This document shows positions 25,150-26,944 of a DNA stretch of 64,000 nucleotides, in pieces. The translations under genes were made by a program, and so were the position numbers. The notes under the pieces are model-generated. The model ran no database searches. It was given only the letters and a program-made list of their open reading frames with translations, and was not told the DNA's origin. Location: the NCBI RefSeq assembly GCF_988243305.1, contig NZ_OZ547136.1; one strand, 5' to 3'. Every line of letters begins with the position of its first letter. The first letter of the stretch is position 1.

Positions 25150-25175
25150 CGGGGATTCTTTTGCAACAAGGGTAT

Positions 25176-25217
25176 GCTGTAAACAACATGGTCCTTGGTG
25201 GCCATGTTGTTTACAGC
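25176..25217 (+). terminator. Perfect 16-bp inverted repeat (stem-loop) 27 bp downstream of iutA; possible terminator or RNA-stability hairpin, no U-tract
   Basis: gctgtaaacaacatgg ... ccatgttgtttacagc. Confidence 0.35.
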
Positions 25218-25364
25218 CAGTATAATATACAGCCTTAACAAGATATTCCGTCTCCGGAATGGACTGTTCACCACTGAATAACAATATGTCTGTTTTATGG
25301 ATCTTTGACTGAAATTTATCGCATATCCTCATTTCATTGTCCGTCTGAAAACTAACCTTACAAG

Positions 25365-25623
25365 TGAACCGCCCCGGGTTTCCTGGAGAGTGTTTTATCT
25401 GTGAACTCAGGCTGCCAGATCATCGTTTCCGATGGAAGCATAATAAGCTTTTTCTGCTTCTGCCGGAGGAGTATGGCCCAGCCTTTCCAGCAATCGTCGA
25501 TTGTTATACCAGTCCACCCACGTGAGTGTGGCCAGTTCCACTTCTGCACGGTTTTTCCAGCTCTTACGGTGTATTACCTCCGCTTTGTAAAGACCATTGA
25601 TGCTCTCCGCCATCGAGTTGTCA
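25365..25623 (-). mobile_element. IS629: IS629 fragment (terminal ~260 bp including the 3' end of orfB), truncated by an IS66-family end
   Basis: Identical to the corresponding end of the complete copy at 20633..; similarity stops where GTAAGCG begins. Confidence 0.8.
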
Positions 25624-26210
25624 GTAAGCGTAAACTGACCGCCGTATGTAGCCATCAGACGAAAATTGGTAACTTAGACGCCCATCTGATATAGACGGAC
25701 ATCTAAGTATGGAATTACAGGACTGGCGAAAAGAACCTCGTAAAAACTATTCGAATGAATTCAAACTTCGTATGGTGGAACTGGCATCACAACCAGGAGC
25801 CTCTGTTGCCCGTATTGCCCGGGAACACGATATCAATGATAACCTCCTGTTCAAATGGCTCAGGCTCTGGCAGAACGAAGGGCGTATATCACGGCGTCTT
25901 CAGGTAACGACCTCTTCTGACACTGGCGTTGAATTATTACCTGTAGAAATAACGCCGGATGAGCAGAAAGAACCGGTGGCGGCCATTGCGCCGTCTTTAT
26001 CCACTTCCACTCAGACCAGTGTCAGTGCCGGCTCCTGCAAGGTGGAGTTCCGTCACGGTAACATGACGCTGGAAAATCCATCGCCAGAGCTGCTCACGCT
26101 GTTGATCCGTGAACTGACCGGGAGGGGACGATGATCTCACTCCCGTCAGGTACCCGCATCTGGCTCGTTGCCGACGTTACCGATATGCGTAAATCCTTCA
26201 ACGGATACGA
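25624..26210 (+). mobile_element. IS66-family element fragment: terminal repeat, orfA, and the first ~30 codons of orfB
   Basis: Begins gtaagcgtaaactgaccgcc (IS66-type terminus, from memory); orfB start MISLPSGTRIWLVADVTDMRKSFNG is truncated; right boundary approximate. Confidence 0.6.
25709..26134 (+). CDS. IS66-family OrfA (TnpA-like)
   Basis: 141-aa ORF MELQDWRKEPRKNYSNEFKLRMVELASQPGASVARIAREHDINDNLLFKWL. Confidence 0.7.
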   Translation: MELQDWRKEPRKNYSNEFKLRMVELASQPGASVARIAREHDINDNLLFKWLRLWQNEGRISRRLQVTTSSDTGVELLPVEITPDEQKEPVAAIAPSLSTSTQTSVSAGSCKVEFRHGNMTLENPSPELLTLLIRELTGRGR

Positions 26211-26433
26211 CATATGCTGAAGGAGGAGCAGTAATGGATTAAGTGATAACAAATACCCAGAAATAGAGGTTCAAATCCAGCTTAGTTAGTACATAAATAC
26301 TATTTTGATGAAAATTATTATATGTTTCCTCAGATTTTAATCAGGCGCCCAGATTAAACCAAGTATTGAGCGCCTGATTATGTTTATTCATTAATATCTG
26401 TCATTGATTGTCTTATTATCAGCTACCCCCGTA

Positions 26434-26616
26434 TTAATCAGAGTTTTCATTTATTTTTAATGCATAATCAGATGCCGCCTCATCATTATCCTCAGTATTA
26501 TCATAGCCGAAAACTTCTCCCGGACACGGGCGTTCACGATAATAGTCATCGTCATAGTTTTCATCGTCAGATAATGATATGTCGTATTCTGAATATGATT
26601 CACCACAATTATACAT
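26434..26616 (-). CDS. small highly acidic hypothetical protein in AT-rich spacer
   Basis: 60-aa ORF rich in D/E/Y; may be spurious. Confidence 0.2.
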   Translation of the reverse strand: MYNCGESYSEYDISLSDDENYDDDYYRERPCPGEVFGYDNTEDNDEAASDYALKINENSD

Positions 26617-26944
26617 GAAATCATCTCCTTTGGGGGGGGCAATAATTAGTGAGTTTATTCGAAAAAATGATGAGCGCTAGACCAATCCACCCAACTTTTG
26701 ATTATAATCATGAAGATACTTGTCTCAGTACAAATTGAATCAAACTCAATGCAGCATGATTCACCTTTATATTCTCTCAGGGAAACCAAATACCACTACT
26801 CAACTATTAAGAACAAAATTCGGGATGTATGATTATCAGAAGATACCTGCATCCTAAATAATTTCAGACAGATATTATCGTTGTGAATCCCCCGCCACCT
26901 TTCCGGTGCGCGGGGTTTTGTCTTTTTTCACCGGGAATACATGT

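Follow-up and report, generated by a model that had tools for sequence, protein, structure and literature searches.

A probable recombination junction between the aerobactin genes and a GTPase-led island backbone of Escherichia coli, with a structurally conserved leader hairpin and a candidate small acidic gene

Terminators and attenuators in the 5' untranslated leaders of Escherichia coli genes have been described by mapping of RNA 3' ends (PMC7815308), and the K-12 guanosine triphosphatase (GTPase) genes ykfA and yfjP have a constitutive promoter, TTGAAA-15-TATCAT, assigned by genomic systematic evolution of ligands by exponential enrichment (SELEX) with RpoD holoenzyme (PMC3946193). A gene of the same GTPase family lies in the DNA analysed here, 64,000 nucleotides (nt) of contig NZ_OZ547136.1 (assembly GCF_988243305.1), hereafter the window, and the subject of this report is the interval 25150-26943 between iutA, the ferric aerobactin receptor gene, and that GTPase gene. 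The interval ends in the GTPase leader, where a hairpin with a U-run (hairpin 3) lies between a predicted promoter and the Shine-Dalgarno sequence, a layout shared with the mapped leader attenuators; hairpin 3 differs from them in having no recognisable leader peptide, antiterminator or ligand-binding domain and in belonging to no Rfam family. Upstream of the leader are a 60-amino-acid (aa) open reading frame (ORF), here called the mini-ORF, two further hairpins, and fragments of two insertion sequences (IS).

The interval is a mosaic of the iutA 3' flank, an IS3 remnant, an IS66 remnant, an AT-rich segment and the GTPase leader, and it is best read as a recombination junction within a genomic island, made of five pieces without being one functional unit. 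The joint reading, in which the junction brings together hairpin 1, IS debris, a small gene, hairpin 2 and a self-contained leader, is moderately probable. Of 5,426 complete E. coli genomes, 456 carry 25150-26943 in identical form, and the parts of the interval differ in reach: the iutA-linked flank (25150-25364) is present as a single copy in 1,045 genomes; the AT-rich segment between the IS66 remnant and the leader (26206-26855) is carried by ~830 genomes; and the last ~100 nt of segment and leader find a match in 4,116 genomes (76% of E. coli), with a median of two copies per genome. RefSeq places four genes in the interval: a partial integrase-core gene, an intact IS66 tnpA, a truncated IS66 tnpB and the 60-aa hypothetical protein WP_000282125.1. 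The initial annotation had described the whole as an AT-rich spacer between iutA and the GTPase gene. That description fits 26206-26880, the only AT-rich part (32-40% GC), and fails for the left 1,050 bases, which hold an IS3 integrase-core fragment, the intact tnpA and the truncated tnpB; both this IS debris (half of the supposed spacer) and hairpin 3 at 26890-26928 had been left out of its list.

The GTPase leader opens with a promoter-like site, TCCTAA-15-TATTAT (26852-26878, plus strand), which occupies the same alignment columns as the TTGAAA-15-TATCAT of the K-12 ykfA and yfjP leaders and is followed by a conserved TGAA. Compared with the K-12 promoters, the -35 hexamer of the window is far weaker, and the stem 3' of the promoter is unrelated in sequence (CCCCGCCACC vs CGGCAGAACC). 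Across five unrelated upstream contexts, conservation begins at about 26852, the -35 position, and continues into the GTPase gene, whose transcription would start near 26885.

Hairpin 3 (26890-26928, plus strand) lies 16 nt 5' of the GTPase ATG and is shaped like an intrinsic terminator set within a leader. Its stem (26890-26915) has 10 base pairs (bp), mostly GC, and one bulged nucleotide; TTTTGTCTTTTTT (26916-26928) comes next. The U-tract directly 3' of the stem reads UUUUGUCUUUUUU, and the stretch 26880-26935, which includes an outer helix discussed below, folds at -21 kcal/mol. Judged by its sequence, it is the best terminator-type element in the interval. The structure can be followed across 24 distinct leaders, taken from E. 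coli paralogues and from IMG/VR contigs whose GTPases are 48-60% identical to the window protein; a search of genome contigs for the GTPase returned six near-identical loci only, and the leader diversity comes from viral contigs. All 24 leaders show the same layout of promoter motif, hairpin of differing sequence, T-run, Shine-Dalgarno sequence and ATG. Since a covariance model built on K-12-type leaders missed the window-type leaders, the two classes were analysed apart. The K-12-type helix (13 leaders) has 12 pairs that are 95.5% paired, five of the 12 being changed on both sides; its covariation of 0.294 exceeds the 0.165 of shuffled alignments (reached in 0 of 500), and sliding the partner columns lowers pairing to 35-55%. 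Among the 11 window-type leaders, whose alignment is imperfect, the helix is 84.5% paired with four pairs doubly changed, and covariation for the counted structure, outer helix included, is 0.199 against 0.128 shuffled (reached in 1 of 500). The MAFFT alignment of this class was out of register, and RNAalifold run on it was uninformative. A structurally conserved leader hairpin of YkfA/YfjP-family GTPase genes appears to be undescribed so far.

The gap that separates the T-run from the Shine-Dalgarno sequence is too short to hold a promoter, and every GTPase messenger RNA (mRNA) must accordingly pass hairpin 3; an attenuator or insulator is therefore the simplest interpretation. The final 90 nt of the interval would form a self-contained leader of the GTPase gene, a sigma-70 promoter succeeded at once by a terminator-type hairpin and U-run. 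Another interpretation is that hairpin 3 merely terminates the unit upstream, as an insulator at the edge of the backbone, that the GTPase gene is transcribed by rare read-through, and that TATTAT/TATCAT is not its promoter. Five compared loci (L028, L030, L033, L039, L040) do have a co-oriented gene of ~300 aa ending 85-123 nt 5' of the GTPase ATG, the GTPase start site is unmapped, and the window-type -35 (TCCTAA) is poor. Yet motif, hairpin and T-run accompany the GTPase gene whether IS elements, genes on the opposite strand or nothing at all stand upstream; in vitro, the K-12 spacers are bound by RNA polymerase holoenzyme, and the same motif is the promoter listed for them (PMC3946193); and conservation starts at the -35 position. 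Termination of an upstream unit as the sole role is for these reasons unlikely, and hairpin 3, with its read-through, most likely attenuates or insulates the expression of the island backbone from the gene's own promoter.

An outer helix is also predicted in these leaders, between the first bases after the -10 motif (CUCCUGAA) and the Shine-Dalgarno region (UUCAGAGGAG). It is predicted within the K-12 leaders of loci L025 (9637-9713) and L027 (1059-1135, minus strand), and in the window it joins 26883-26887 with 26927-26931. The helix is 89% paired in the K-12-type set with one-sided changes only, and it is not established; if formed, it would hide the ribosome-binding site only in transcripts begun 5' of the native promoter. 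A more ambitious proposal is that hairpin 3 and its U-run, together with the outer pairing, act as a regulated cis-acting RNA switch that gates the backbone operon of CP4/P4-type islands in answer to an island or host factor. This is a tentative idea, to be doubted more than believed. About three quarters of E. coli genomes contain the sequence of the element.

The mini-ORF (26434-26616, minus strand) is the second element of interest. The initial annotation had noted a 60-aa ORF rich in Asp, Glu and Tyr at this position, and it is there, on the minus strand, annotated in RefSeq as the hypothetical protein WP_000282125.1; it is an orphan gene. The product contains 11 Asp, 8 Glu and 8 Tyr; its 19 acidic residues face 3 Lys and Arg, which gives a charge of -16.5 at pH 7 and an isoelectric point of 4.05. 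A Shine-Dalgarno sequence AAGGAG (26625-26630, minus strand) lies 8 nt 5' of the ATG at 26616 and is the same in 12 aligned variants, and a candidate promoter CTGAGA-16-TATAAT (26701-26728, minus strand) scores 10 of 12 in a consensus scan, its hexamers also unchanged in the 12 variants. The AT-rich segment probably carries a small gene with its own Shine-Dalgarno sequence and promoter-like site, transcribed away from the GTPase gene. A run of eight G (26632-26639; eight C on the mini-ORF strand) stands directly 5' of the Shine-Dalgarno sequence in the window lineage only; most other haplotypes have GGGATGGTTA or GGGGTGGTTA at that site.

Sequence variation points to selection on this reading frame. 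Twelve copies from different islands, 89-100% identical, were aligned; variable sites make up 8.2% of the mini-ORF vs 17-27% of the adjacent flanks, with more further left, so that no other part of the segment varies so little (15 variable sites among 183 vs 28 of 138 in the adjacent flanks; Fisher P = 0.0026). Pairwise pN/pS, the ratio of non-synonymous to synonymous polymorphism, is 0.00-0.34 among six haplotypes. With three more haplotypes from assemblies, the resulting nine contain 10 synonymous and 10 non-synonymous changes where 18% synonymous would be expected (P = 0.0013). The variable sites correspond to codon position 2 of both overlapping alternative ORFs (frame positions read against the variable-site counts), and those frames are therefore disfavoured. 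The P0008 allele has a DDENY repeat that is expanded in frame. The mini-ORF looks like a genuine gene under purifying selection, and of the possibilities first raised for the segment, a small protein is the one favoured by the ribosome-binding site and the substitution pattern.

It might be objected that the mini-ORF is untranslated, that the conservation reflects a role in RNA or DNA (as a small RNA, a promoter region or a regulatory stretch bound by H-NS), and that the open frame is a by-product of composition. The same stretch is open in three overlapping frames; the non-coding stretch 26701-26860 is almost equally conserved (10.6% variable sites); homologues beyond close copies are lacking; and frameshifted alleles circulate (L013, P0017, P0018, P0027), so the gene is dispensable in some strains. 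The synonymous bias, however, is confined to the mini-ORF frame, the canonical AAGGAG stands at ideal spacing to the ATG, the length change in P0008 stays in frame, and there is no Rfam match. An untranslated by-product is improbable in our judgement, and a translated gene remains the preferred interpretation.

Database searches agree on a narrow distribution. A word-indexed search of 5.8 billion proteins returned only mini-ORF copies of at least 70% identity, all named matches being E. coli; the exact-sequence cluster also has members labelled Enterobacteriaceae and Klebsiella pneumoniae. An exhaustive HMMER search of 1.84 billion cluster representatives gave close copies plus two long low-complexity proteins only, and no family match was obtained in Pfam, NCBIfam, PHROGs (best E = 0.31, unrelated), PADLOC or the Protein Data Bank (PDB). 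By these sequence searches, the gene is confined to E. coli and its closest relatives. AlphaFold2 predicts no secondary structure for the product (mean predicted local distance difference test (pLDDT) 52.6, predicted template modelling score 0.12, from a shallow alignment of 9 sequences), and the protein is probably disordered. Searches by accession found no ribosome-profiling or proteomic record of it. An identity with EDL933 Z1178 was considered and rejected, because Z1178 is an outer-membrane protein.

The initial annotation had offered a DNA-mimic-like anti-restriction factor as one possible function. On this account, the product would be a DNA mimic, an anti-restriction or another anti-defence protein, and its acidic surface would resemble the DNA backbone and so inhibit type I restriction enzymes or nucleoid proteins such as H-NS. 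T7 Ocr and ArdA, the described mimics, share with the mini-ORF product a small size, an extreme excess of Asp and Glu and carriage on mobile DNA, and their charge density is comparable to that of a product with -16.5 charges over 60 residues. The gene shows purifying selection, and the module that contains it often lies beside restriction or defence cargo: a type I R subunit (L004, L006, L010), a methyltransferase and helicase (L005) or an MmeI-type enzyme (L054). The same module equally adjoins aerobactin, tellurite-resistance, colibactin and cad cargo, and the linkage to restriction is therefore unspecific. Of the hallmarks of Ocr- and ArdA-type mimics, the product has the strong negative charge and neither membership of their families nor a folded scaffold of carboxylates: it has no sequence or profile similarity to them or to any Pfam, NCBIfam, PHROG, PADLOC or PDB entry, it is roughly half as long as Ocr and a third as long as ArdA, and its pLDDT of 52.6 without secondary structure contrasts with the folded state of known mimics. 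Nothing speaks for the proposal beyond charge and the unspecific nearness of the module to restriction genes. A DNA-mimic function is highly improbable, and the preferred view is of a small acidic protein that is probably disordered.

At the left end of the interval, hairpin 1 (25176-25217, plus strand) begins 26 nt past the iutA stop codon. The perfect 16-bp stem reported there is exact in coordinates and pairing: arms at 25176-25191 and 25202-25217 enclose a 10-nt loop. Its folding energy of -29 to -30.6 kcal/mol corresponds to z = -4.9 on the plus and -5.9 on the minus strand, and 0 of 200 dinucleotide shuffles are as stable. It is the longest perfect hairpin-type inverted repeat in the window; with 7 GC among 16 pairs, it is stable, though not GC-rich. 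The structure is kept elsewhere. ColV-type E. coli and Klebsiella virulence plasmids are 87% identical to the window over iutA and the first 60 bases 3' of it, and they have a hairpin at the same site with three compensatory swaps (T-A to A-T, A-T to T-A, A-T to T-A) and one pair opened to A·A. In L016, which represents a third iutA lineage (Klebsiella, 82% protein identity), the 3' sequence is unrelated, yet a GC-rich hairpin again forms roughly as far past the stop codon. These swaps and the hairpin of the third lineage are what is expected of a transcript-end structure rather than of a protein-binding palindrome.

Hairpin 1 is thus most likely the 3'-end hairpin of the aerobactin transcript. 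A U-tract is absent on both strands (tails CAGUAUAAUAUAC on the plus and AUACCCUUGUUGC on the minus strand), and it is therefore no canonical intrinsic terminator. The most likely role, proposed from the structure, is that of a U-less terminator or of a 3' stem-loop that blocks exonucleases after Rho-dependent termination; the hairpin would then either end iucABCD-iutA transcription or shield the 3' end of the transcript, its structure being conserved and its function inferred. Calling it a terminator was consequently apt in location, 26 nt past the stop, and in the compensatory changes of the plasmid lineages, and less so in the missing U-tract; no description of an iutA terminator was found in the open-access literature. 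The hairpin could alternatively work as DNA, as a protein-binding palindrome or recombination site. It is a perfect palindrome without a U-tract, and a 16-bp tandem duplication directly 3' of it in strain 55989 hints at local replication slippage. Protein-binding palindromes keep their sequence, whereas here three pairs are altered with complementarity retained, and the different hairpin at the same stop-codon distance in the third iutA lineage is typical of transcript ends. A role as DNA is very improbable, and a transcript-end structure is preferred.

Two side observations concern the same site. The duplicated 16 bp of E. coli 55989 (TTGTTTACAGCCAGTA; L053, 1568-1583) spans the end of the 3' arm of hairpin 1 and the bases beyond. 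Two plasmid aerobactin loci (L014, L015) have a second, larger inverted repeat (ACATAATCTGTAGTCAG...CTGACTACAGATTATG) ~80-130 nt past the iutA stop, 3' of their version of hairpin 1; the window has no counterpart of it.

Between the iutA flank and the AT-rich segment lie the insertion-sequence remnants. The first is the right end of an IS3-family element (25365-25623, minus strand; IS629/IS1203-like), cut by the IS66 insertion and identified from RefSeq and a Pfam rve_3 match (1.7e-10). It holds a C-terminal integrase-core fragment (ORF 25407-25655), labelled by RefSeq as an incomplete "integrase core domain-containing protein", and opens with TGAACCGCCCCGGG at 25365; plasmid IS3/IS1203 copies match from about 25358-25367 on. 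With the IS3 family it shares the TGAACCGCCCCGGG terminal repeat and the integrase-core C-terminus, and it differs in that only the last ~260 nt are left. The second is the left end of an IS66-family element (25624-26205, plus strand), with the terminal repeat GTAAGCG at 25624 and a Pfam HTH_Tnp_1 match (2.2e-14). Its tnpA is intact (25709-26134), tnpB (26131-26205) is truncated after 25 codons and tnpC is absent, so that of the full IS66 set of terminal repeat, tnpA, tnpB and tnpC, the left repeat GTAAGCG, tnpA and the start of tnpB are present, while most of tnpB and all of tnpC are gone; it is a remnant and no complete element. Both copies are truncated and unable to transpose, and they are inert debris. 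An imperfect 16-nt inverted repeat (81%) at 25672-25708 lies directly 5' of the tnpA start, within the IS66 left end.

The IS66 repeat at 25624 is also the exact junction to four unrelated left flanks, found in the window and in loci L004, L007 and L009. In the window the flank is the remnant of IS3 that follows iutA; the others are the ter-cluster end, the colibactin (pks) island and a fragment of IS30 by a type I restriction gene. The same truncated IS66 copy and backbone have therefore been joined to differing cargo at this end, and the IS66 end may be taken as the mark of where cargo modules were joined to one backbone. The recurrent unit is made up of the IS66 remnant, the AT-rich segment, the GTPase gene and an Ag43 or dynamin-family gene; the cargo beside it includes aerobactin, ibrAB/PerC, ter, pks, cad, type I and MmeI-type restriction and a toxin gene. 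As a separate observation, the chromosomal locus L006 (E. coli CP66-6_Sichuan, 5390-8272) has an ISApl1 and mcr-1 segment at the mini-ORF start, in place of the GTPase side of the AT-rich segment.

Hairpin 2 (26338-26380, strand open) lies 54 nt past the mini-ORF stop and has an 11-bp perfect core (26338-26348 with 26370-26380) that extends to 14-nt arms with one mismatch (26338-26351 with 26367-26380, 93% complementary). A 10-bp stem had been reported at 26341-26380; the stem is real and lies two bases further left, the left arm aatcaggcgc being 26339-26348 and the right arm gcgcctgatt 26370-26379. Its energy is -21 to -22 kcal/mol (z = -4.4 and -5.4 vs shuffles). The tail is U-rich and broken on the plus strand (AUGUUUAUUCAUU) and A-rich on the minus strand (AAAAUCUGAGG), and a plus-strand terminator therefore fits better. 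One compared locus bears on its position: L010 (E. coli VTB96926v) is without the IS66 remnant and has to the left a decayed second GTPase gene that converges on the mini-ORF (2441-2905; it covers GTPase residues 9-145, is interrupted by frameshifts and stops, and matches YkfA in tblastn with E = 4e-14), so that hairpin 2 stands between units that converge. Inside the AT-rich segment of the window, tblastn gave no sign of such a decayed gene. The decayed copy in L010 keeps its own promoter motif, hairpin (AACGGCTGA/TCAGCCGTT) and T-run.

Whether hairpin 2 has any function is uncertain. Between the small gene and a converging upstream unit, it would most simply be a weak transcription stop and nothing stronger, better as a plus-strand than as a minus-strand terminator. 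There is a considerable chance, short of even, that it is a functionless inverted repeat that arose by chance in AT-rich DNA. The aligned variants show no covariation, and the stem changes in L010 and L011, the two most divergent of six haplotypes, are uncompensated; the window has seven further perfect hairpin stems of 11-13 bp, which makes hairpin 2 unexceptional; and the strand of the adjacent gene has no proper U-tract. Against chance stand an energy 4-5 standard deviations past shuffled sequence and a position exactly between convergent units, in L010 the decayed GTPase gene and the mini-ORF. Bidirectional terminators usually sit between convergent units. The earlier label of terminator is thus weak for hairpin 2, given the missing covariation and the disruptive changes in two haplotypes, and a weak stop is the most that we would propose. 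To its right, a tetranucleotide repeat (ATTC)n at 26386-26393 varies in length, with 4 additional bases in L008 and 16 in L009.

Comparison with known RNA systems separates the three hairpins. With the hairpins at operon ends, whether intrinsic terminators or stem-loops that stabilise 3' ends, hairpins 1 and 3 share a stable stem next to a gene and compensatory changes that preserve it; hairpin 3 shows the complete form, GC-rich stem and U-run, hairpin 1 differs in having no U-tract, and hairpin 2 differs in its broken U-rich tail on one strand only. The small RNA that had been suggested for the spacer finds no backing in Rfam, where no family exceeds chance: a search of window positions 24500-27500 returned sroH only (16.3 bits vs a threshold of 80), and this match at 26737-26884 (minus strand) was dismissed as chance; the K-12 yfjP leader has sbrA as its best match (23.1 bits vs 45). 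Esr41, an Hfq-dependent small RNA of O-islands 43/48, resembles the GTPase leader in being ~70 nt long, in having a GC-rich palindrome and poly(U), and in lying on a tellurite-resistance island with a copy of the module. It is a different element, and an identity with the leader was rejected: neither the window nor any of the loci compared contains the Esr41 fragments given by crosslinking, ligation and sequencing of hybrids (CLASH).

Several points weigh against the joint reading. No transcription, 3'-end or translation record was found for the locus. The GTPase promoter is a sequence prediction within a SELEX peak, with no mapped start site, and the yfjP and ykfA genes or their coordinates are absent from the supplements of papers that map transcription start sites. 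The K-12 Term-seq supplements (PMC7815308) contain no 3' end in the yfjP or ykfA leaders, and the leaders, 66-77 nt long, show no recognisable antiterminator, leader peptide or trans-acting factor. For the mini-ORF, the substitution sample is small (20 changes in 9 haplotypes), and the frameshifted alleles count on the same side, as do the absent U-tract of hairpin 1 and, for hairpin 2, the lack of covariation, the uncompensated changes and the seven comparable stems.

The neighbouring genes are those of an island. On the left, iutA (22954-25149, plus strand) is the last gene of iucABCD-iutA, assigned from the ORF list and from RefSeq on identical DNA (E. coli O26:H11 11368 and strain 3090). 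On the right, the GTPase gene (26945-27817, plus strand; MMR_HSR1 8e-15), a member of the YkfA/YfjP/YeeP family, opens the conserved island backbone; its protein is 51-52% identical to K-12 YfjP and YkfA and has weak PADLOC matches to LeoBC (9e-9) and LeoA (1e-4). A dynamin-family gene of ~795 aa follows 3' of it, directly or after Ag43/Cah (in the window; in L007 from 4787 onward), and the two proteins could function as a pair. At 31057-31083, ~20 nt past the Ag43/Cah-family autotransporter ORF, a perfect 13-bp stem closed by a 1-nt loop is probably the terminator of that gene.

The region is mostly ordinary island architecture: both hairpins listed at the outset would be routine transcript-end structures, the ORF was already annotated, and taken alone the finding is modest. 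For researchers on E. coli islands, two elements should be of use. The mini-ORF offers a clear example of a small acidic gene that is restricted to one lineage and looks to be under selection, and it travels with a GTPase and Ag43/dynamin-family module that is joined, depending on the strain, to aerobactin, tellurite-resistance, colibactin or restriction-modification cargo. The other is a promoter-proximal terminator-type hairpin on the GTPase gene that opens the backbone, also present in K-12 ykfA and yfjP; the structure of this leader hairpin is conserved and its sequence is not, which suggests restraint or control of backbone expression at the RNA level.

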